A DNA stretch of 64,000 nt from NCBI GenBank assembly GCA_964618625.1, contig CAZUBI010000001.1, positions 164,781-228,780 on the forward strand, written 5' to 3'. The stretch is from an uncultured Candidatus Saccharibacteria bacterium. GTDB taxonomy: Bacteria > Patescibacteriota > Minisyncoccia > UBA6257. The notes beneath the pieces are model-generated. The model was not told the DNA's origin and ran no database searches. It saw nothing but the letters and a program-made list of their open reading frames with translations. How positions within the stretch are numbered: the stretch's first letter is position 1; each line of letters begins with the position of its first letter. A program made the translations under genes and the position numbers. Below are positions 14,271 through 48,217 of this stretch, one piece after another.

Positions 14271-16112
14271 TTATTTATTCTCATCAATTTGTGGTATAAG
14301 AAGTTGCGGTCGTTCTTTTATTTCTTGTTGAATAAATTTATCTAAGCTATCCTTTATTAAAATGAGTTGGGCGCGTTGTTTTTCTGTCAATTTAAATTCC
14401 ACATCTTTTAAATCTCCATCCTTAAATAAAATACCAAGCGCTTGTATTTCCCGAGGCTTACTAGGATTATTTGATGGTAAATTAAACTCGGTCCGAATAT
14501 TTTCTATAAGATCTCCGAAGTCATCTATTTCTTTCTTCAAAACCGTTTCTAAATTTTTACCAAATACTAACAACCTATTGTTAATTACTATCTCTGCATT
14601 TTTAACCTTCCTAATATCATCCATGGAAATATCGAAAGCGGTTGAATCTTTATTTTGAGCACTAGATTGATTAAGCACTTTAATAATTCTTTCGTTTATG
14701 CCATTTTCGCTGTTTGCCTCATCTCTATCAATCACTATAAGACAAGGGATTCCGAAAGCAGTAAGAAAAGTATAAATGGATGGAATATTATTTTTTCCAT
14801 CCGCTATTACCAACGCAAATTGATTTTTATCAATATTTGAAAAAGAATGAAATACCTCTGCGTCAGAGGGCCCTTCTACAATAACCGCTCTAGGAGCGAA
14901 AAGAGCTTCCCTCAAGCCGTTTGCAACTGTTTCAATAAGACTGTAATGAATATGTTGATCACTAATATTCTCTTTCTGTTGTCCCAAAGAAATTGTATGC
15001 TTCCTAAGTAGGGTACTATCCACATGTCTAACACTTATATTTTTATTTTCTTCCCATAAGACAACTATGTCTTCAAAGCTCCCGCAATCAATAAAATCTT
15101 CCGAATGAGTAGTATAAATTATTTGCCCTTCGGTATCCTCAGTTTTAATAGCTTGTTTCAAAACAGTAAACAAAGTTTTTCTTGCTTGTGGATGAAGGTA
15201 GCTTTCTGGCTCTTCTACTAAAAGCACAGCCCGATTATTTCTACTGTGTCTTTTCAAATAAGTTCGATAAATAGCTATAATTGCTAGTCTTTGAACACCT
15301 TCTCCTAATGTTTCCAACGGAACTTTGTTGCCATGTCTTTTAACCGAAAGCTTAAACTGACGATAATACCGCCATGGTTCATAATCAAGAAACTCCAGAT
15401 CTGTTCCACTAAGATTTAGAGGCTTAATCTGGCCCCAAAAAGTTTTTATATCTTTCTCAATATTCTTAAATTCCTGAGGGGCTCTTAATACCTTGACTGC
15501 ATCCGATATTTTCTTTTCAAATTCTTCTACTTTTTTCCCTTCATCTTCTTCGCTAAATATTCTTTCAACCTTCTGCAACATTCTCCCCAAAACACCCCAC
15601 TTGTTTGATGGTTGTTCGCCCTGAAGTTTTATCAGAGGAATCGTAATAACAACTGGTAAATTATTCTTGATATCCTGGCTTATTCTTATTTCGTTCTCCC
15701 ATTTATTTTTGGCTATTTCCCAATCACATTTATTAAAATCGTTTATCGTGTTGAGGAGAAAATAGTCAACACCAACAGAAGATTCACCATATCCAGTTTT
15801 TAAATGGTAGGCTTCAATAAGCAAACCGATAACTTCTTTATTTTCCCCGTAATAGGAAATTTCAATTGGGCTATTAAATTCCGCCGCTAGAATAATCTTT
15901 CTAGAAAGTTTATTGTTATAAAAATCATTTTCATTAAATTGGCTAGATGGCCATTTATCACCAAACAAAATATCTAGTGCCTTCAAAATGGTACTTTTGC
16001 CAACATTATTTGGACCAATCAAAGCAGTAAGACCAGAATTAGAAAATTCTATTATGACTGGTTCATCACCAAAACAGCGATAATTTTTTATTAGAAGCCT
16101 TTTTATAAACAT
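14271..16112 (-). CDS. OLD-family ATP-dependent endonuclease (AAA ATPase + Toprim)
   Basis: 613 aa; N-terminal Walker A GPNNVGKST in the LLIKNYRCF..LTALIGPNNVGKSTILKAL context typical of OLD/AAA_15-21; C-terminal Toprim block AVIVEGPSDAEVF. Confidence 0.8.
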   Translation of the reverse strand: MFIKRLLIKNYRCFGDEPVIIEFSNSGLTALIGPNNVGKSTILKALDILFGDKWPSSQFNENDFYNNKLSRKIILAAEFNSPIEISYYGENKEVIGLLIEAYHLKTGYGESSVGVDYFLLNTINDFNKCDWEIAKNKWENEIRISQDIKNNLPVVITIPLIKLQGEQPSNKWGVLGRMLQKVERIFSEEDEGKKVEEFEKKISDAVKVLRAPQEFKNIEKDIKTFWGQIKPLNLSGTDLEFLDYEPWRYYRQFKLSVKRHGNKVPLETLGEGVQRLAIIAIYRTYLKRHSRNNRAVLLVEEPESYLHPQARKTLFTVLKQAIKTEDTEGQIIYTTHSEDFIDCGSFEDIVVLWEENKNISVRHVDSTLLRKHTISLGQQKENISDQHIHYSLIETVANGLREALFAPRAVIVEGPSDAEVFHSFSNIDKNQFALVIADGKNNIPSIYTFLTAFGIPCLIVIDRDEANSENGINERIIKVLNQSSAQNKDSTAFDISMDDIRKVKNAEIVINNRLLVFGKNLETVLKKEIDDFGDLIENIRTEFNLPSNNPSKPREIQALGILFKDGDLKDVEFKLTEKQRAQLILIKDSLDKFIQQEIKERPQLLIPQIDENK

Positions 16113-19041: not shown

Positions 19042-20670
19042 TTATTTTTCAATTAATTTTTCTACTACTTTCCAAGTTGCTTCATTTTTAAAAATATTAT
19101 TATAACTATATTCTTTGCCTTCCTTTTTTCTTATTATCTTAGCCGCTTTTTTGCAAAAATTAACAGCCTTTTTAAAACTTTGCACTTCTTTTTTATCGTA
19201 GTTATATAAAAAAGTCATAATATGAAAATTAGCATGATCTAAAAATGCTCTTTTGTTCTTATTATTGACGCCTTTTAATATCTTCTTCTCTCTTTTTATT
19301 TCTTCTTGTACAAAGATACAATAATCACAAATCTTTGTTATTTCATCTATTTTTAATTCTTCCTCGTTAAAAATCTCTTTGTATATTGATTTATCCCCTT
19401 TTATTATGTCAAATAGATCCTTTTTAGAAGATTTAGCTTTAGCTGGTTTCATATATTTACAAGAATAAATCCACTGCCCTAAATCAGTAATCAATATTTT
19501 GTCCTTAATTCCTGGCTTCTTTTTCCTTTGATATGAATAACCTTCTAGATTCAATATTTCTTCTAGCGTTTTTTGAATGAAATCATTTGTCCTAAGATCC
19601 CACTTATCTATTTTTCTTTGAGTATTAGTAGATTGGCAAACCGAATTTATCTCATTTTCATCCTCTGCCTCAAAAAGTCTAGTCAAAATCATAATTTTTT
19701 TACAGTCGCCTGCTAAAATTTCCTTATTTTGATACATATTATAAAGAGTACTTAATGATTGACATCCGTTTATAATTTGAGGATTGATAACATTAAAAAC
19801 ATATTTATCACTTATTTGTTTCAAATTCTTGCAGCTGACAGTAATACCATTATGAAAAAGATAAAATTTATTTTTTCGTTCTAAAATTGTATTTTTGAAA
19901 CTAAATTTTAGGCTTTTATCATTTTGATTAACTCTAATATTATCTTCAAAAATATTATATTTTTCATCATCTGCTTTTTCAAACATATCTAATAGTTTAA
20001 TCAATAAAACTTTACCAATAACAATACGATTTTTTTTATCATAAAAAGAACTATTATCTTGAAATTCTATCCTATCTAAAAAGTTAATCTTTTTCGAATA
20101 ATTAATATCTACTTTGACCAAATCTCTTAAATTAAGTAATTTCAATTCTACTCCTGTGTAATTATTGAGATGTGATTCTAGATTTTTTTTTAATTTATTC
20201 TCCGCATTCTTTTTGTCTGAATATCTTATTATGTTTAAATATATTTTATAATTTCCTTTTAAAAATCTTTTCCTTGCTTCCTTAATCTTCTTTGCCGCCA
20301 AAGGATTTAAATTATGCAAAGAAGTATTTGGATTGAAAAAATTCCTTTTTAATTCTTCTAAAAAACCATTAAGAATACTCTGACGATCAAATCCCTCGCT
20401 TTTAACATCTAAAATATTAATCTGCTTTTTTGCCTTGTTTACAACTATCGCATCAACCCCTCCATCCTTTTTTCCATCCGTAATCAATTCTTTATTATAT
20501 ATTTCATCATTATTAAAGCCAAAAAGTATTTTTATAATAGTTATGATCGCAGCATAAGCGTTTTCGCTCGAGCCCTTCATAGAATAATGTTCTCGATTGT
20601 GACTGAAAATCTTTTTAGCTAATTTAAAATCTTGATTTATTCTCCTTTCTATATATTCTTTTAAAAGCAT
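19042..20670 (-). CDS. AIPR-family (abortive infection phage resistance) protein
   Basis: 542 aa; N-terminal ITDGKKDGGVDAIVV block resembles the AIPR DG..DGGIDA signature; C-terminus EKLIEK* overlaps a junction-repeat copy. Confidence 0.6.
   Translation of the reverse strand: MLLKEYIERRINQDFKLAKKIFSHNREHYSMKGSSENAYAAIITIIKILFGFNNDEIYNKELITDGKKDGGVDAIVVNKAKKQINILDVKSEGFDRQSILNGFLEELKRNFFNPNTSLHNLNPLAAKKIKEARKRFLKGNYKIYLNIIRYSDKKNAENKLKKNLESHLNNYTGVELKLLNLRDLVKVDINYSKKINFLDRIEFQDNSSFYDKKNRIVIGKVLLIKLLDMFEKADDEKYNIFEDNIRVNQNDKSLKFSFKNTILERKNKFYLFHNGITVSCKNLKQISDKYVFNVINPQIINGCQSLSTLYNMYQNKEILAGDCKKIMILTRLFEAEDENEINSVCQSTNTQRKIDKWDLRTNDFIQKTLEEILNLEGYSYQRKKKPGIKDKILITDLGQWIYSCKYMKPAKAKSSKKDLFDIIKGDKSIYKEIFNEEELKIDEITKICDYCIFVQEEIKREKKILKGVNNKNKRAFLDHANFHIMTFLYNYDKKEVQSFKKAVNFCKKAAKIIRKKEGKEYSYNNIFKNEATWKVVEKLIEK
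19046..19065. repeat. junction repeat (CTAC subtype; inside the AIPR-like ORF 3' end)
   Basis: TTTTCAATTAATTTTTCTAC. Confidence 0.75.
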
Positions 20671-41958: not shown

Positions 41959-42783
41959 CTATTTAATTTTAAAACGGATTGTACCGTCTAAATCAGTACG
42001 AAAGATTTGAGCGCCAATGTTTCTTAAACGCTCAAGCGTATCAGGATGAGGATGACCATAACTATTTTCCCCAACTTCAATAACCGCTATTTGAGGTTTA
42101 AATTCTTCTAAAAACAACGCAGAAGATGAATAGCGAGAACCGTGATGCGGAACTTTTAATATCCGGGAATTATTATCAGGGCAGAGGAGCAAAGACAAGA
42201 TTTTCTTTTCTTGAGCAGAACTAATGTCTCCGGTAAAAAGAAAACAATTTTGTCCCAAAAATAACATGTGAACTGAACTAAATTTATTAGGATCTTGCCT
42301 GGAAGAAACCATTATGTCTGGATAAAGAAATAAAAGATTGTCTTGATTTTCCCAACTTACCTTTGTGCCAATTATTCCTTTAATTATCAATGTTTCTCTT
42401 TTATCTAATTCCTGAAGCAGTTTTTGAAACAAAGAATTGGAATAAGATAAATTATTAAGTATTATAGCCCTAACTTTATATCTTTCCAATATATCAAACA
42501 AACCATTAAAATGGTCTTTGTTAGGATGAGAAAGTATAAATAAATCAATTGTCCTGTCGTAAAAAGGCAGTAATTTATCTAATTCAGAAAGAATCTTTGC
42601 GTCAGGACCAGCGTCAATCAAAATGTTGCCTCCTGGAATTTGAATAAATTCAGCGTCGCCTTGCCCAACAGACAAAAAACTCACTTCACCTTTAGACATA
42701 CAAAGAAAATCAAGAATAATCCAATAAGCAAAAATATTGGCGGCAATAAGAATTATTAAAAAATATTTAAAAGGTTTTTTCAT
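41959..42783 (-). CDS. comEC: ComEC C-terminal metallo-beta-lactamase domain protein
   Basis: ORF-track frame extends to 42870, but MKKPF (ATG 42783) overlaps the upstream TGA as ATGA; HPNKDH..VPHHGS MBL motifs. Confidence 0.7.
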   Translation of the reverse strand: MKKPFKYFLIILIAANIFAYWIILDFLCMSKGEVSFLSVGQGDAEFIQIPGGNILIDAGPDAKILSELDKLLPFYDRTIDLFILSHPNKDHFNGLFDILERYKVRAIILNNLSYSNSLFQKLLQELDKRETLIIKGIIGTKVSWENQDNLLFLYPDIMVSSRQDPNKFSSVHMLFLGQNCFLFTGDISSAQEKKILSLLLCPDNNSRILKVPHHGSRYSSSALFLEEFKPQIAVIEVGENSYGHPHPDTLERLRNIGAQIFRTDLDGTIRFKIK

Positions 42784-44186
42784 GTTCTTTTGCGGATGTA
42801 GAAGAAGAGAAAAATATAATAAGGAATAATGAACCAATGCAAAACAGATGGAATATAAATCTGCGACCAAGACAAAGAAGAAAATAATGAAATAACTTTT
42901 AGGAAATAGGCAAGAATTAAATTAAGCAAGGCCCCGAGAAAAAGCCCGAATGGATAAAACAATAAAGAAGAAATCGCTACAATTGCTCCACCTGCCATTA
43001 TTAAAGGAACTAAAGGGAGAATTAAAAGATTTGTAATCGGAGAAACCAAAGAAAGAACCTGCATTTTAAATATCACCCAAGGAATAACAAATGTTAAAGC
43101 TGAAGATGTAGAAAGAACTGTTTCTCTAATAATTTGGCCTTTTTTATTAAACCAATCCTGTTGCCAAAATGGACTTTCTTTCCATATAGGATAAAGAAAA
43201 ATTATTCCTGCAGTAGCTAAAAAAGAAAGTTGAAAACCCAAATCCCAAAAAAGAACCAAAGGATTTAGCCAAATCATTATCACAGCAGCTAAAAGCAGAG
43301 CATTAAAGGAATTGTAAAGACGAAAACTGAAGCGGGATAAAATCAATAAAGACGCCATAATAGCAGCCCTAATAATAGACGGGGTTAAACCTGCCATAAA
43401 AGCAAAGCTTAATATAAACAGAGAAGAAATAATAAAATTAACAGAATTACTCATACATAAAATATCAAGAAAACCAGAAAGCGCTTTTGCTATTATTGAT
43501 AAATGAAGGCCGGACGCGACAATAACATGGGACAAGCCACATCTTCTTATTTGCTTTTCCAAAACAGACGTTAAATTATTTTTAGCGCCAAACATTAAAC
43601 TAATAAGAAGGCTGGATTTGGGTTCAGGAATTATTTTTTGTAAAGATGATGTAATTTTATTTTTTACTAATAAAGCGGTTCTCCTCAAAGAAAATTTAGC
43701 AGGAGAAAAAAGCTCTATTGAGGGATAACTTATTTTTCCAGAAATAATTATTGAACTATATGAACGAAATTCAGAAAAAGGCTTAACTTTACCCTTAATA
43801 TTTATGATATCCCCATAATGATAACGGGGATACCTGTCTGTATAAATAACAATTTTTGGAATGATAATTCTTTGATAATTCTCTTTGAAAATAGGCTCAG
43901 CAATAATTGCAGCCTTGATTTCTATTTGCTCTTCCTCAATAATGGCAGTATTTTTTAATTCCCTAAAAACAACAAAATATCGATATCCTCCTAAAAATAA
44001 ACTTAATAAAACTAAAATCAAAACAATAAATTCTTTTTTTCTGACAAAAAAATAGGCACAAATTAAAAAAGCGAAAAAGCAAATCGCCTGTAAAGAAAAA
44101 GACGAGTTAGTAAAATAAGACAAAATTACACCAATTAAAAAAGACGCCCCGCATTGGCGAAATACTCTTGAAGCCGAAAGCGTCAT
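42780..44186 (-). CDS. comEC: ComEC N-terminal competence membrane domain protein
   Basis: 468 aa polytopic membrane protein; ends in a TGA that overlaps the ATG of the MBL-domain ORF. Confidence 0.7.
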   Translation of the reverse strand: MTLSASRVFRQCGASFLIGVILSYFTNSSFSLQAICFFAFLICAYFFVRKKEFIVLILVLLSLFLGGYRYFVVFRELKNTAIIEEEQIEIKAAIIAEPIFKENYQRIIIPKIVIYTDRYPRYHYGDIINIKGKVKPFSEFRSYSSIIISGKISYPSIELFSPAKFSLRRTALLVKNKITSSLQKIIPEPKSSLLISLMFGAKNNLTSVLEKQIRRCGLSHVIVASGLHLSIIAKALSGFLDILCMSNSVNFIISSLFILSFAFMAGLTPSIIRAAIMASLLILSRFSFRLYNSFNALLLAAVIMIWLNPLVLFWDLGFQLSFLATAGIIFLYPIWKESPFWQQDWFNKKGQIIRETVLSTSSALTFVIPWVIFKMQVLSLVSPITNLLILPLVPLIMAGGAIVAISSLLFYPFGLFLGALLNLILAYFLKVISLFSSLSWSQIYIPSVLHWFIIPYYIFLFFYIRKRT

Positions 44187-44878
44187 CTTATATTACATTT
44201 GGAAAAATACGGTTTTATTTTTTTTAATAACTGCTTTGTCCTTTGTTCTGACCATGGTTGAGCATTTTTAAATTTTTCATCCAAAACTTTGCCTCTCTGA
44301 AAACGCTGAAGATAGTAATGGGGAGCGAATTTTATCCAATCAACAATGGCTAAAACATCCTGCTCATCTAAAACATCAGAAACCAAAGTTGTTCTAAATT
44401 CGTAATCAATTTTATCCCGTTTTAATAATTCTATACTTTTATCAACTTTTTCTACAATATTCTTATCTTCACTAAAAATTTCATACTTTTCTTTCGGCGC
44501 TTTTATATCCATTGCCACATAATCTATTAATTTTTCCTCAATTAAATTATTTAAAACATTCGGACAAGAACCATTCGTGTCTAATTTTATCAAAAAACCC
44601 AAATCCTTTACTTTTTTTATAAAATCAATCAAATCAGGTTGAATAGCAGGTTCTCCTCCAGTAATACATAACCCTTCTAATAGTTTCCGGCGTTCTTTTA
44701 AAAAATCAAGAATTTCTTTTTCTGTAATTTTTGGCTGTTTTTTTATTAATTCTGGCAAAACTAATTCTGGATTATGGCAATATGGGCAACGAAAATTGCA
44801 GCCAACAGCGAAAACAGTAGCTGCCACTTTCCCCGGATAATCAACTAAAGTTGTTTTTTGCAAACCGCCAAACAACAT
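44183..44878 (-). CDS. nrdG: anaerobic ribonucleoside-triphosphate reductase activating protein
   Basis: 231 aa; radical-SAM CNFRCPYCHNPE. Confidence 0.85.
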   Translation of the reverse strand: MLFGGLQKTTLVDYPGKVAATVFAVGCNFRCPYCHNPELVLPELIKKQPKITEKEILDFLKERRKLLEGLCITGGEPAIQPDLIDFIKKVKDLGFLIKLDTNGSCPNVLNNLIEEKLIDYVAMDIKAPKEKYEIFSEDKNIVEKVDKSIELLKRDKIDYEFRTTLVSDVLDEQDVLAIVDWIKFAPHYYLQRFQRGKVLDEKFKNAQPWSEQRTKQLLKKIKPYFSKCNIR

Positions 44879-44881
44879 AAT

Positions 44882-47800
44882 TTATATTTTAAAGGTGGAA
44901 CGTTCTTTAAATTCTTCCTGTTTTCCTTTATGCCATTGTTGTACAGGACGCAAATATCCGACAACTCTGGAATAAACCTCACAAGGCTGTTCTATTGTAC
45001 ATTTTGGACAAATAAAATGTTCCCCTGCTATATATCCATGAATAGGGCAGACAGAAAAAGTAGGCGTAAGAGTAAAATATGGCAAACGGAATTTTTCAAA
45101 AACAATTTTAATTAAAGATTTTACTGATTCAGAATCAGACACTGCTTCTCCTAGGAAAGAATGAAATACCGTATTATGAATAAATACTAAAGTATTTTTA
45201 CCAGCTAAATAATTATGATTTTTTTGAGTGGTCAAATCATAAAATTGATTATCTTTCACATCAACTTTTGAAATTTTCTTTACTCTGATTACGGGTAAAA
45301 ATCTTTTCTTTCTATTAGAAAACTTATTGTTAATTCTTTCTTTATTAACAGTGTTTTTTAATTGATCTTTTATTTTAATCATCTCGTATTGTGGTATTCG
45401 AATCCGCCAAATATCCACCTCATTTTTTCTTTTATTTTTCTTCCTTGTCTTACCGACCATAATTCCAGCGATTGAGCAAATCTCTAAAATATCATCAGCT
45501 AACCCCTCGGAAACAGTATAATATTCGAAAAACCCATCTCTTTTATCAATATGACCATCGCTATCCATTAACCCTGATAAAAGTGAATAAAAATTCTCTT
45601 TTCTAATGTTCGCTTTTACTATTTCAGGAATTCTTATTATATAAGTTTTTTCTCCAAAAGAAAATCCATATTTAAAGAAAAACTGCCAAACAGCTTTTTT
45701 AGACGTTGAAACACATCTCAATAATTTACTCCTTTTATCATTTTGTATTACATTCACATGACAATTAAAATATTTATTAAGAATATTCTTTATTTTGCTT
45801 AGTGCTACTCGATGTTCGGAAAAAAAACGCACTACAAATTTTTCAATCTGATTTCCTCCTCGATTATCAAAAAACTGAGAGATGGAACCATCGCCAATAA
45901 AAAATCCAATTAACCACATTAAATTATTATCTAGCCTAGATGATTTTTCTAAATAAAGATTGAAAGAGTTTTGTAAAATATAATCACTTTTCTTCAGCTC
46001 ATCTGCTCTTTTTTCTATTACTCTATATTTTGACATTTTTGAATACTTCAATCGACATTGTGCATGATGCTTTAAATGAACAGCAAAACCTTTAATATTG
46101 CTTACCTTTTCTTGACAAATAGGACAACAAGAATCAGGTTTTATCTTTTCCAAAACAAAAAATGGATGCCAATCAGAAGTAGTAATATCCATTCCCTTCT
46201 CTCCCTTTATCCTAATTTTATTCTTTTTTTTAACATTAATTTTAAAAACATCAACAATTGCGTCCCATTCGCTAACGCCTTTCTTTAAATTGTAGCTTAA
46301 AGCTTTAATGGGTTTTAATTTTTCAAAATTCTCTACTATTTCTTCTATTTTAATCAAACCTTTATTAGTCAAAACTTTATTCCCTTTCTCAATACATCCA
46401 CCTGTATATTTTGTTTGTAAAGAATCCTGTAATTTTAAAGCTTCAAATAAATCATCTGTGTAATTTACAGGTAGTTGGGTGGAATTAGTATAATAAGGCT
46501 CTTTTCCCCCTGCAGTAATAATATCAGGATATTTTTTCTTATCTTTTAGCGCCAAACGATAAGAAGTTCCTTCGGCAGGAGTAGCCTCTAAATTATATAG
46601 ATTTCCGGTTTCTTCCTGATACTCTACCAACCTATCACGCATAAAATCTAATACTTCTAAAGCAAATTTAACTCCTTTTTTATTACCTAAATTTATTCCC
46701 AAAAAATTAAGAAGCGCTTCATTCATGCCAATCAATCCAATGGTGGAAAAATGATTGCCCCAATAACAACTTCTCATCTTCTTCACTCCGTTTAAATAAT
46801 ATTTTGCATAAGGATAAAGCCCTTTATCTGTCCAATCTTCCAAAACCTTTCTTTTTATTTCCAAGCTTATTTTAGCTAAATTCATTATATGCGCTAATTT
46901 TTGGAAAAATTCTTTTTTTGTTTTGGATAAATAAGCCAAACGAGGCATATTAATCGTTGCCACGCCAATACTCCCTGTGAGCGGAGCTGCTCCAAACAAT
47001 CCTCCTCCACGTTTATAAAGTTCTCTATTATCCAACCTAAGTCGACAGCACATTGAACGCGAATCTTCTGGACTCATATCAGAATTGATAAAATTTGAAA
47101 AATATGGAATTCCGTACTTTGCCGTCATTTTCCAAATTCCATCATAAACTGGATTATTCCAGTCAAAATCTTTAGTAATGTTATAAGTAGGAATAGGGAA
47201 GGTAAAAACTCTTCCACTCGCATCACCATCTACATAAACCTCGCAAAACGCCTGATTAAGCATATCCATTTCTTCTTGAAACTCTTTGTAAGTTTCTTTT
47301 TGATGCTCACCACCAATTATCACAGGCAACTCTTTAAAATGACTTGGAACTTTTAAATCCAAAGTAAGATTTTCAAAAGGGGTTTGAAAGCCTACTCTTG
47401 TAGGGATATTACAATTAAAAAGAAATTCCTGCAAAGATTGTTTTACCTCATTATAGGTTAAATTATCATAACGAATAAAAGGCGCTAATAAAGTATCAAA
47501 ATTAGAAAAAGCCTGGGCCCCGGCTCCTTCTCCTTGTAATGTATAGAAAAAATTAACTACTTGACCTAAAGCAGAACGAAAATGTTTTGCAGGTTTTGAT
47601 TGAATTTTACCAAAAACTCCACCAAATCCTTTTAAAAGAAGATCATATAAATCCCAGCCACAACAATAAGTGGCTAAAATATCTAAATTATGAATATGAA
47701 AATCTCCGCTTTCAGTTGCTTCCCTGACTTCTGGCGGATAAATTTTTCTCAACCAGTATTTTTTTGCCACATAAGCAGCAACATAATGATTTAATCCCTG

Positions 47801-48217
47801 CAAAGAAAAGGCCATATTGCTATTTTCTTTTACCTCCCAATCTTTCTCCTTTAAATATTCATCTACTAAGCTTATTGCTTCTTCAGAAATGATACGGCTT
47901 TCCCTTAATTTTTTTCGCTGTTCACGATATAAGATATAGGCTTTTGATGTCTCCACTAAATTCTCTAAAATTAGAACCTCTTCAACAATATCCTGAATCT
48001 GCTCTACGGTAGGAATTTCATCTTTTTTAAATCTTCTGTTTAAAATTTTTATCACGCGAGCGCATAATTGCCGCGATAAAACTTTGCCACCTTCATCAGT
48101 GGCTGTTAAAGCTTTATAAATAACTTCTTCAATCTTCTTTTTATCAAAAAGAACAATATCCCCTGTTCTTTTTTTTACTTGCTTTATATGATTATGAAAT
48201 TTTCTTTTTGGGGACAT
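44882..48217 (-). CDS. nrdD: anaerobic ribonucleoside-triphosphate reductase (class III) containing an intein
   Basis: 1111 aa; ATP-cone N-terminus, glycyl-radical motif RVVGYLRP, C-terminal Zn ribbon CPIHGY..CPKC; ~408-aa insertion carrying intein and LAGLIDADG motifs. Confidence 0.85.
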   Translation of the reverse strand: MSPKRKFHNHIKQVKKRTGDIVLFDKKKIEEVIYKALTATDEGGKVLSRQLCARVIKILNRRFKKDEIPTVEQIQDIVEEVLILENLVETSKAYILYREQRKKLRESRIISEEAISLVDEYLKEKDWEVKENSNMAFSLQGLNHYVAAYVAKKYWLRKIYPPEVREATESGDFHIHNLDILATYCCGWDLYDLLLKGFGGVFGKIQSKPAKHFRSALGQVVNFFYTLQGEGAGAQAFSNFDTLLAPFIRYDNLTYNEVKQSLQEFLFNCNIPTRVGFQTPFENLTLDLKVPSHFKELPVIIGGEHQKETYKEFQEEMDMLNQAFCEVYVDGDASGRVFTFPIPTYNITKDFDWNNPVYDGIWKMTAKYGIPYFSNFINSDMSPEDSRSMCCRLRLDNRELYKRGGGLFGAAPLTGSIGVATINMPRLAYLSKTKKEFFQKLAHIMNLAKISLEIKRKVLEDWTDKGLYPYAKYYLNGVKKMRSCYWGNHFSTIGLIGMNEALLNFLGINLGNKKGVKFALEVLDFMRDRLVEYQEETGNLYNLEATPAEGTSYRLALKDKKKYPDIITAGGKEPYYTNSTQLPVNYTDDLFEALKLQDSLQTKYTGGCIEKGNKVLTNKGLIKIEEIVENFEKLKPIKALSYNLKKGVSEWDAIVDVFKINVKKKNKIRIKGEKGMDITTSDWHPFFVLEKIKPDSCCPICQEKVSNIKGFAVHLKHHAQCRLKYSKMSKYRVIEKRADELKKSDYILQNSFNLYLEKSSRLDNNLMWLIGFFIGDGSISQFFDNRGGNQIEKFVVRFFSEHRVALSKIKNILNKYFNCHVNVIQNDKRSKLLRCVSTSKKAVWQFFFKYGFSFGEKTYIIRIPEIVKANIRKENFYSLLSGLMDSDGHIDKRDGFFEYYTVSEGLADDILEICSIAGIMVGKTRKKNKRKNEVDIWRIRIPQYEMIKIKDQLKNTVNKERINNKFSNRKKRFLPVIRVKKISKVDVKDNQFYDLTTQKNHNYLAGKNTLVFIHNTVFHSFLGEAVSDSESVKSLIKIVFEKFRLPYFTLTPTFSVCPIHGYIAGEHFICPKCTIEQPCEVYSRVVGYLRPVQQWHKGKQEEFKERSTFKI
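45173..46396 (-). mobile_element. intein with LAGLIDADG homing endonuclease inside nrdD
   Basis: Begins at Cys 608 (TGG|CIEKGNKV), ends VFIHN|T; LIGFFIGDGSIS and LSGLMDSDGHI LAGLIDADG blocks; coordinates computed from residue positions. Confidence 0.7.

Follow-up and report, generated by a model that had tools for sequence, protein, structure and literature searches.

PI-PfuI, the Pyrococcus furiosus ribonucleotide reductase (RNR) intein (PDB 1DQ3), resides in a class II RNR and is inserted after a GG motif of its host enzyme. It contains a two-motif LAGLIDADG domain, a Thr at position +1, and a ~90-aa Stirrup between the endonuclease and the C-terminal HINT lobe. PI-SceI, the yeast VMA1 intein, carries a zinc-free DNA recognition region (DRR) of ~70 aa that is placed by sequence inspection between its block-B strand H79ELVV and W157TIEARDL. 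TliVMA and PhoVMA are modular inteins in which a variable accessory domain, added to the HINT and endonuclease domains, modulates cleavage of DNA (PMC8966425). These accessory domains follow the endonuclease and precede the C-terminal HINT lobe, and none of them is a zinc finger. Across homing-endonuclease inteins, accessory domains are diverse and have been implicated in DNA recognition.

In HO, the finger domain is located at the C-terminus. The yeast HO endonuclease and WHO elements unite a LAGLIDADG endonuclease of intein origin with a zinc-finger domain (10.1101/2020.01.20.913210). No other natural pairing of an intein-type nuclease and a zinc finger was found in the open-access literature; the remaining matches there were engineered fusions, and none described a prokaryotic intein whose accessory domain is a zinc finger.

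Few genes are known to be as rich in inteins as those for RNRs (PMC4760082). Class III RNR genes have been described before as hosts of inteins and introns, with examples in Clostridium phage c-st and D-1873, Lactococcus phage 949 remnants, and Jug gut phages (PMC3653736, PMC12880540). An intein in NrdD is as such routine, and NrdD inteins were known before; the reports that describe them give no zinc finger.

The window, meaning the whole 64,000-nucleotide stretch of DNA analysed here, contains an nrdD gene on the minus strand that encodes a class III anaerobic ribonucleoside-triphosphate reductase with an ATP-cone (Pfam NRDD 4e-190, ATP-cone 5e-18). As the initial annotation had described, the 1111-aa product includes a segment of ~408 aa that begins with CIEKGNKV after TKYTGG; translation gives an open segment of exactly 408 aa that ends with LVFIHN and is followed by TVFH (Table 1). 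The insertion is in frame between Gly607 and Thr1016, within the conserved motif KYTGG/TVFH (the slash marks the insertion point here and below), and its GC content is 27.7% versus 33-34% for the exteins. The C-extein includes the C-terminal Cys/His cluster and the glycyl-radical motif SRVVGY. The nrdG-like activase gene is genomic context outside the intein, and the same gene order is seen at L069, a syntenic locus with an empty insertion site. Ten other window ORFs were scanned and contained no further intein, and an Rfam scan of the window returned one tRNA only and nothing linked to nrdD.

Table 1. Features of the nrdD locus and its intein, in window coordinates
Feature	Position	Strand	Details
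nrdD precursor gene	44882..48217	(-)	1111 codons plus stop; listed ORF
N-extein coding region	46397..48217	(-)	NrdD residues 1-607, ending ...LQTKYTGG
Intein, 408 aa	45173..46396	(-)	Cys1 to Asn408; NrdD residues 608-1015
HINT N-lobe	46151..46396	(-)	Intein residues 1-82; block A C1; block B T73 S74 D75 W76 H77
Zinc-finger insert, 41 aa	46028..46150	(-)	Intein residues 83-123; absent from PI-PfuI and the sister clade
CCPICQ...HLKHHAQC string	46055-46129	(-)	Intein residues 90-114
LAGLIDADG homing-endonuclease domain	45362..45931	(-)	Intein residues ~156-345; Pfam LAGLIDADG_3 2e-11
LAGLIDADG motif 1, WLIGFFIGDGSI	45881-45916	(-)	Intein residues 161-172; D169
LAGLIDADG motif 2, LSGLMDSDGHI	45548-45580	(-)	Intein residues 273-283; D280
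HINT C-lobe	45173..45292	(-)	Intein residues 369-408; block F FYDLTTQKNHNYLAG (D387, H394); block G LVFIHN (H407, N408)
C-extein coding region, 96 aa	44885..45172	(-)	First residue Thr+1 (TVFH...)
nrdG-like radical-SAM activase	44183..44878	(-)	Directly downstream of nrdD; Radical_SAM 1e-20, Fer4_12 1.4e-11 (Pfam)

The insert is very probably a canonical class-1 intein with a two-motif LAGLIDADG homing endonuclease, predicted to splice, to cleave DNA, and to home in nrdD. Besides LAGLIDADG_3, Pfam assigns Intein_splicing to it (8e-14), and the PI-PfuI PDB entry is its best sequence match (2.4e-14). Its AF2 model (pLDDT 89, pTM 0.87) predicts a HINT fold with 1dq3 (PI-PfuI) as the best Foldseek match (E 3e-24, TM 0.73) and with further matches to the TliVMA and PhoVMA inteins and PI-SceI, while I-DmoI, I-OnuI, and I-Tsp061I match the predicted LAGLIDADG core fold at E 1e-6 to 1e-8. 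Cys1, directly after Gly607, is invariant in 75 of 75 family sequences. Block B S74 and H77 are conserved in all 75 (S74 is Thr in one sequence), and the window intein also has D387 and H394 of block F, H407-N408 of block G, and Thr+1. The +1 residue is Thr in every homologue but one, L007, which has Ser; across the 75 members the splicing residues are essentially invariant, with two single conservative exceptions. The initial annotation had proposed an intein with a homing endonuclease and suggested a scan for blocks A, B, F, and G; all four blocks are present, and the proposal holds on domain matches, splicing residues, and predicted fold alike.

Judging from these residues, splicing would begin after translation with an N-to-S acyl shift by Cys1, helped by S74 and H77 of block B. 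The hydroxyl of Thr+1 would then attack the thioester to give a branched intermediate, and Asn408 would cyclise with the help of H407 and of D387 and H394 in block F. The expected products are the free 408-aa intein and an active 703-aa NrdD.

The NrdD intein shares the segments TSxWHPFFVL, EKRADELK, FYDLT..NYLAG, and VFxHN with PI-PfuI, together with the two-motif LAGLIDADG domain, Thr+1, and a site after a GG motif of an RNR. Both LAGLIDADG blocks listed in the initial annotation, LIGFFIGDGSIS and LSGLMDSDGHI, occur in the translation. The two inteins differ in host class, and PI-PfuI relatives in this comparison are inserted at GGG/TGFNFS. The NrdD intein lacks a Stirrup and instead contains a zinc finger where PI-PfuI has a short turn. 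It is modular in the same way as TliVMA and PhoVMA, which are among its structural neighbours. Its endonuclease domain aligns with that of PI-SceI at a probability of 91% (hhalign). The slot of the PI-SceI DRR appears to correspond to that of the finger, H77PFFVL to R125VIEKRADEL, an equivalence made by inspection because a profile alignment of the two HINT N-lobes gave no match and the endonuclease domains alone align. Unlike the finger, the DRR has no zinc site, and its fold is unrelated. The HO finger domain is joined to a degenerated intein that does not splice, whereas the NrdD intein is a putatively splicing-competent element with a single CCHC finger inside HINT.

The finger module is inserted in the hairpin directly after splicing block B, 6-14 residues from catalytic H77. 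Its putative zinc ligands are C91, C94, H107, and C114, with a C-x2-C-x12-H-x6-C spacing that is fixed in 51 sequences; C90, H110, and H111 are not conserved in the family. Six finger columns never vary (C, P, C, H, C, and Y), and with a mean net charge of +5 the segment is basic. In the AF2 model, a beta-hairpin bridge at residues 90/97 precedes a helix at 101-110. PI-PfuI and a clade without the finger have a mere 3-4-residue turn at this position; the module is absent altogether from this sister clade, which occupies the same site in the same enzyme.

The module resembles classical C2H2 fingers. The initial annotation had noted a zinc-finger-like insertion CCPICQ..HLKHHAQC; the string is present, but the ligands form a CCHC set rather than the implied C/H pattern. 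The window sequence happens to fit the C2H2 pattern C-x2-4-C-x12-H-x3-5-H through H107-x3-H111. However, no more than 5 of 50 homologues have His at position 111, and the conserved fourth ligand is C114 (H-x6-C). The finger is therefore classified as a CCHC variant, and a strict C2H2 (TFIIIA-type) finger is rejected. Pfam zf-C2H2_4 and zf-C2H2 match 40 and 34 of 50 members, respectively, at a weak best E of ~2e-4, and the window finger scores 17 bits against the C2H2 model, where the cut-off is 27. DUF7501 weakly matches all 50 members (best E 8e-7), with the window copy at 21 bits against a gathering cut-off of 27 bits. Against 1.84 billion protein representatives, a finger profile gave full-length matches in NrdD inteins only; the next matches were poly-C2H2 arrays and one Ros/MucR protein. 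The C2H2 fingers 1mey and Miz-1 superpose on the isolated finger model at 1.4-1.9 A over 22-25 residues, with E >5. Since Foldseek returned no significant structural neighbour of this isolated model, the beta-beta-alpha classification is provisional.

Removal of the insert yields a 703-aa NrdD that aligns colinearly through the junction with solved NrdDs lacking an intein; the E-value against these structures improves from 2.6e-35 to 6.4e-42. The closest database relatives are 93% identical, intein-free, and exactly 703 aa long; they read through an uninterrupted TKYTGG/TVFH and share the FtsA-FtsZ-NrdD-NrdG-ComEC neighbourhood. In the alignment the exteins rejoin as the initial annotation had expected. 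Relative to the syntenic empty locus L069, whose site reads TTACAAACAAAATATACTGGCGGT/ACGGTATTTCATGCTTTTTTAGG, the difference is exactly 1224 bp, and nucleotide identity is 88% over the N-extein and 94% over the C-extein. The insert is a precise 1224-bp presence/absence polymorphism. P0060 and P0064, two relatives that carry the intein, are no closer in their exteins than the empty alleles are.

The same-site intein is found at 44-68% identity in 53 GTDB loci across Bacteria and Archaea, including Patescibacteria, DPANN archaea, Methanophagales, Halanaerobium, Desulfonema, and giant sulfur bacteria. Its recurrence at one site in such distant lineages points to a horizontally spreading homing element. 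Two features are signs of homing: alleles with and without the intein coexist, and the distribution does not follow the phylogeny of the hosts. On this distribution and anatomy, the free intein would cleave intein-less nrdD site-specifically at a target spanning ACAAAATATACTGGCGGT/ACGGTATTTCAT, and repair by recombination from the intein-bearing copy would copy the element into the cut allele. A tblastn search of 50,697 cultured-phage records found only remote helicase inteins at 26% identity, and that collection therefore holds no close phage source. For L073 and L074, the interpretation of ~500-aa database matches as gene-calling truncations of a full nrdD was rejected; no N-terminal nrdD lies nearby. 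In Patescibacteria, NrdD stands out as a hot spot for inteins: at least six insertion sites are used, and alleles with and without an intein are abundant.

It is now close to inconceivable that the 408-aa segment is no intein but a lineage-specific structural insertion in NrdD, the case in which the initial annotation expected blocks A and G to be missing. Every intein block is present, including A and G, and the predicted fold is HINT plus LAGLIDADG; the segment is distributed over both prokaryotic domains independently of host phylogeny, and extein rejoining, the Foldseek match, and the exact 703-aa empty alleles rule such an insertion out. There is only a slim chance that the element is a fixed, decaying intein with an inactive endonuclease, in which splicing alone is maintained. 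Decay of this kind is seen in many family members, with defective LAGLIDADG motifs in 17 of 75 and several reduced to mini-inteins of 146-232 aa, but the window copy retains both catalytic acidic residues (LIGFFIGD169G and LSGLMDSD280G) and the surrounding motifs, and intein-bearing and intein-free alleles coexist in one lineage at ~90% identity.

Within the intein, the finger is most likely an accessory DNA-recognition domain, an assignment made with moderate confidence in which zinc binding and DNA binding are both predicted. The 41-aa CCHC module would extend or stabilise target binding, in a role like that of the PI-SceI DRR or the PI-PfuI Stirrup. It varies between related inteins as an accessory domain does, being present in one clade and missing from the sister clade and PI-PfuI-type relatives. 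The class II RNR relatives contain a Stirrup-type accessory domain in its place, which the finger has apparently replaced. The four ligands are kept in 49 of 49 endonuclease-intact members and lost in 6 of 13 endonuclease-defective members that keep their splicing residues, a link (Fisher test) in which sequences are counted irrespective of kinship and which represents only 2-3 independent finger losses. On these sequence comparisons, the fate of the finger appears to track the endonuclease and not the splicing residues, and the finger is probably not needed for splicing. The finger could instead be purely structural, capping the block-B hairpin with the help of zinc so as to aid HINT or precursor folding and playing no part in DNA recognition. 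This is unlikely, although the proximity to H77 fits such a cap, as do three other observations: outside the ligands, the finger is less conserved than any other part of the intein (50% pairwise identity versus 70-75% for HINT), the canonical base-contact positions +3 and +6 are occupied by small residues, and the finger is still intact in 7 endonuclease-defective inteins. These three observations also weaken the DNA-binding role, as do the lack of a significant structural neighbour for the isolated finger model and the inspection-based equivalence with the DRR slot. Against a folding role, the finger-less sister clade and PI-PfuI-type relatives have the same HINT blocks, the six inteins without ligands retain every splicing residue, and no finger is lost where the endonuclease is intact. 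Less probable still is a regulatory sensor, in which the Cys3His zinc site would gate splicing by oxidation or zinc so that the oxygen-sensitive NrdD matures only under reducing, anoxic conditions. The host enzyme is exclusively anaerobic, the finger directly adjoins block B, and redox-, zinc-, and substrate-controlled inteins are documented; however, where zinc is known to affect inteins, it works via residues of the active site rather than a dedicated finger (PMC10663303). The association of the finger with the endonuclease rather than with the splicing residues, and its absence from the sister clade at the same site, also argue against a sensor. Were such a switch to operate, possibly alongside DNA binding, a selfish element would have been recruited to control anaerobic dNTP synthesis post-translationally in many anaerobes of both prokaryotic domains, an outcome that is just as improbable as the sensor itself.

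The new point is a modest one: a widespread prokaryotic intein contains a single zinc finger inside its splicing domain. If the finger binds DNA, the intein would be a natural zinc-finger/LAGLIDADG hybrid nuclease and a natural test of the proposal that new accessory domains let homing inteins escape extinction. It would also be a possible compact scaffold for engineering meganuclease specificity. With its multiple insertion sites and its wealth of empty and occupied alleles, Patescibacteria NrdD is useful for the study of homing dynamics in uncultured, competence-dependent organisms.

The nrdD gene of the window, which encodes the class III anaerobic ribonucleotide reductase (RNR) NrdD, is interrupted by an intein. 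Its product matches Pfam NRDD (4e-190), an N-terminal ATP-cone, Intein_splicing (8e-14), and LAGLIDADG_3 (2e-11). The intein begins with CIEKGNKV directly behind TKYTGG and ends with LVFIHN, followed by TVFH. The initial annotation had placed and sized this segment correctly, the strand being the sole addition, and the motifs it named are all found in the translation: LIGFFIGDGSIS, LSGLMDSDGHI, and CCPICQ...HLKHHAQC. The GC content of the intein is 27.7%, against 33-34% in the flanking exteins and 32.5% in the window on average.

Coordinates of nrdD, its intein, and neighbouring genes in the window
Feature	Position	Strand	Evidence
nrdD ORF, 1111 codons	44882-48217	minus	ORF listing and Pfam
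Intein segment, 408 aa	45173-46396	minus	translation
ComEC, both overlapping ORFs	41959-44186	minus	
ComEC, Competence-domain ORF	42780-44186	minus	
ComEC, metallo-beta-lactamase-part ORF	41959-42870	minus	
OLD-family ATPase/TOPRIM nuclease	14271-16112	minus	PADLOC Old 5e-44; AriA and GajA models match too
AbiU-like protein	19042-20670	minus	1e-31

The intein contains a complete class-1 splicing set consisting of Cys1, block B T73-S74-x-x-H77, block F D387 and H394, block G H407-N408, and Thr +1. Across 75 aligned same-site homologues, including those with a decayed endonuclease, these positions are invariant save for two conservative single substitutions. Among solved proteins, the Pyrococcus furiosus RNR intein PI-PfuI has the most similar sequence (2.4e-14). 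An AlphaFold2 model built from 14 homologues is confident (pLDDT 89, pTM 0.87), and its best PDB neighbours are PI-PfuI (TM 0.73), the TliVMA and PhoVMA inteins, and PI-SceI; free-standing LAGLIDADG enzymes, among them I-DmoI and I-OnuI, come next. Motifs, predicted fold, and the PI-PfuI match agree; the finding is real, and its interpretation as an intein is supported.

Deletion of the segment leaves a 703-aa protein, colinear with intein-free solved NrdDs, whose junction YTGG/TVFH (the slash marks the insertion site) aligns without a break to RGGHIFY, SGGAILH, and TGGFIHY. The best E-value against solved NrdDs strengthens from 2.6e-35 with the segment to 6.4e-42 after deletion. Natural intein-free alleles are the strongest evidence that the exteins rejoin. 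In a set of 5.8 billion proteins, the best matches to the spliced form, P0043 and P0044, are 703-aa NrdDs with 93% identity that read TKYTGGTVFH, and one of these lies in a contig with the window's gene order FtsA-FtsZ-NrdD-NrdG-ComEC. At the DNA level, the occupied locus has, relative to the empty one, a clean insertion of 1224 bp between ...ACTGG(C/T)GG(T/A) and ACGGTATTTCAT... Two 1111-aa relatives, P0060 and P0064, also carry this intein; their exteins match those of the window at 91% and 89% identity, not above the empty alleles, so intein presence does not follow the host-gene tree.

All 42 protein-database matches to the intein are NrdDs with the same insertion site, and a scan of GTDB, with a single genome for each species, yields 53 loci with the intein at YTGG/C...HN/T, 44-68% identical to the window copy. 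Bacterial hosts include Patescibacteria (Paceibacterota, Nealsonbacteria, Saccharibacteria), Desulfonema magnum, Thiomargarita, Parabeggiatoa, and the cultured Halanaerobium saccharolyticum and H. congolense; archaeal hosts include Woesearchaeota, Nanoarchaeota, and Methanophagales. Archaeal and bacterial copies are interleaved in the intein tree. AT-richness, empty and occupied alleles, and interleaved distribution together bear the hallmark of active homing. The source names of the closest NrdDs and the genes in the window point to a Paceibacterota-like CPR bacterium as the window's organism. ComEC is split into two overlapping ORFs, an arrangement also called in the related contig L069, which carries a syntenic intein-free nrdD. 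Through natural competence, the window's lineage would have a way of taking up DNA for intein homing.

In PI-PfuI, TSPWHPFFVL runs straight into FKIVEKRADELK, whereas the window intein has 41 added residues (83-123) between these strands. The family alignment separates a sister clade of 366-371-aa inteins without the insert from a clade of ~408-aa inteins with it, and a neighbour-joining tree with the insert columns masked parts the two cleanly, a split that fits either one gain or one loss. Across 51 sequences the spacing C-x2-C-x12-H-x6-C is kept without any indel; six columns are invariant (C91, P92, C94, H107, C114, Y118), and F104, A105, K123, and Y124 are nearly so. The annotated Cys/His insert is present, but its C90, H110, and H111 are not conserved in the family, which makes the predicted metal site CCHC. 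With a mean net charge of +5 the segment is basic, and it is predicted to form a Cys-knuckle hairpin followed by a helix with H107. Each of the 50 distinct copies matches Pfam DUF7501 as well as several C2H2 families, in most cases under curated cut-offs, and a structure search with the isolated module gave no significant match; strict C2H2 membership was set aside for these reasons, and the module is called a putative C2H2-like CCHC finger. Its profile, run against 1.84 billion cluster representatives, has full-length matches in NrdD inteins only, some of them in three-intein NrdDs as long as 1776 aa; next come poly-C2H2 arrays, one DUF7501 protein, and one Ros/MucR-family protein.

The nearest relatives outside NrdD are class II RNR inteins at GGG/TGFNFS, which have the TSDWHPFF and EKRADE blocks in common with the NrdD inteins but lack the finger and carry a large Stirrup-type accessory domain at a different position. 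Such PI-PfuI-like inteins occur in loci L054-L068 (e.g., L055:5090-6484, L063:4960-6084). The GG/T context is alike at the class II and NrdD sites, a hint that the element may once have jumped from one RNR paralogue to another. In the verified PI-SceI sequence, the DNA recognition region (DRR) lies, by inspection, between H79ELVV and W157TIEARDL, and the finger lies between H77PFFVL and R125VIEKRADEL. The two slots appear by inspection to be counterparts; a profile alignment of the splicing-domain (HINT) lobes of the window intein and PI-SceI failed.

The finger appears dispensable for splicing, because the full splicing-residue set is retained in the sister clade, in the PI-PfuI-type relatives, and in six inteins whose finger has lost ligands. 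Its fate follows that of the endonuclease: the four ligands are kept in 49/49 copies with intact LAGLIDADG catalytic residues, while ligands or a portion of the module are gone from 6 of 13 LAGLIDADG-defective finger-clade copies (Fisher 2.8e-5, without phylogenetic correction and with ~2-3 independent losses underneath). Published accessory domains of homing-endonuclease inteins are diverse and contribute to DNA recognition. Given this precedent, the link to the endonuclease, the dispensability for splicing, and the absence of a Stirrup from NrdD inteins, the favoured reading is that the finger is probably, by a modest preference, an accessory DNA-recognition domain. Seven endonuclease-defective inteins with an intact finger count against a DNA role, as does the conservation of the finger outside its ligands, which is lower than anywhere else in the protein. 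A purely structural finger is rather unlikely, and a redox or zinc gate on splicing is quite improbable.

Stepwise decay is seen in L026, L044, L045, L048, L049, and P0028 (Halanaerobiales), where LAGLIDADG motifs are degenerate and, in addition, ligands are lost or the finger is truncated or replaced. The P0028 sequence begins at the NPLTG/SIGV site and stops ahead of the glycyl-radical motif, which suggests heavily fragmented nrdD in such genomes. About a dozen clusters of ~500-aa ORFs (P0017-P0025, P0029, P0031; L073:6001-7506, L074:5913-7418) consist of ~45 aa of NrdD N-extein, a finger-less sister intein, and ~85 aa of C-extein without the RVxGY glycyl-radical motif. At L073 and L074 the ORF is isolated, surrounded by DNA methylase and helicase-like genes and lacking a nearby N-terminal nrdD; a mobile element or phage might carry it as an intein donor cassette.

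The same Paceibacterota NrdD clade, homologous to the window gene and with 75-93% identical exteins, has inteins at five or more other sites. Other NrdD sites are RSM/CCRLRL (the catalytic Cys loop), GIPYF/SNFINSD, RVGFQ/TPFEN, NPLTG/SIGV, and EATPAEG/T(S/A)YRLA (P0054, P0057, P0059, P0076, P0094, P0096, P0103, P0107, P0109, P0110, P0114, P0115, P0123, P0007). One NrdD representative, P0163 (1776 aa), holds three inteins. After splicing of the P0054 intein (CPLAGDE...THN/CRLRL), the CC motif of the product would lack one Cys. Elsewhere in the window, the OLD-family and AbiU-like genes are near each other and may form a small defence island in this CPR genome.

The anaerobic RNR of Methanocaldococcus jannaschii has two inteins. 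Since inteins are also common in RNR genes (PMC4760082) and nrdD inteins or intein remnants are reported in phages (PMC3653736; PMC12880540), the intein itself is of an already known kind. No description of a zinc finger within a natural prokaryotic intein was found in the searchable literature. The finger-bearing intein is already in public genomes of cultured organisms, and novelty appears limited to recognising the module, the sequences themselves not being new. The element is of moderate interest: as a mobile intein it is ordinary, and the new point is its zinc-finger accessory module, which appears to be undescribed and has a putative role in DNA binding.
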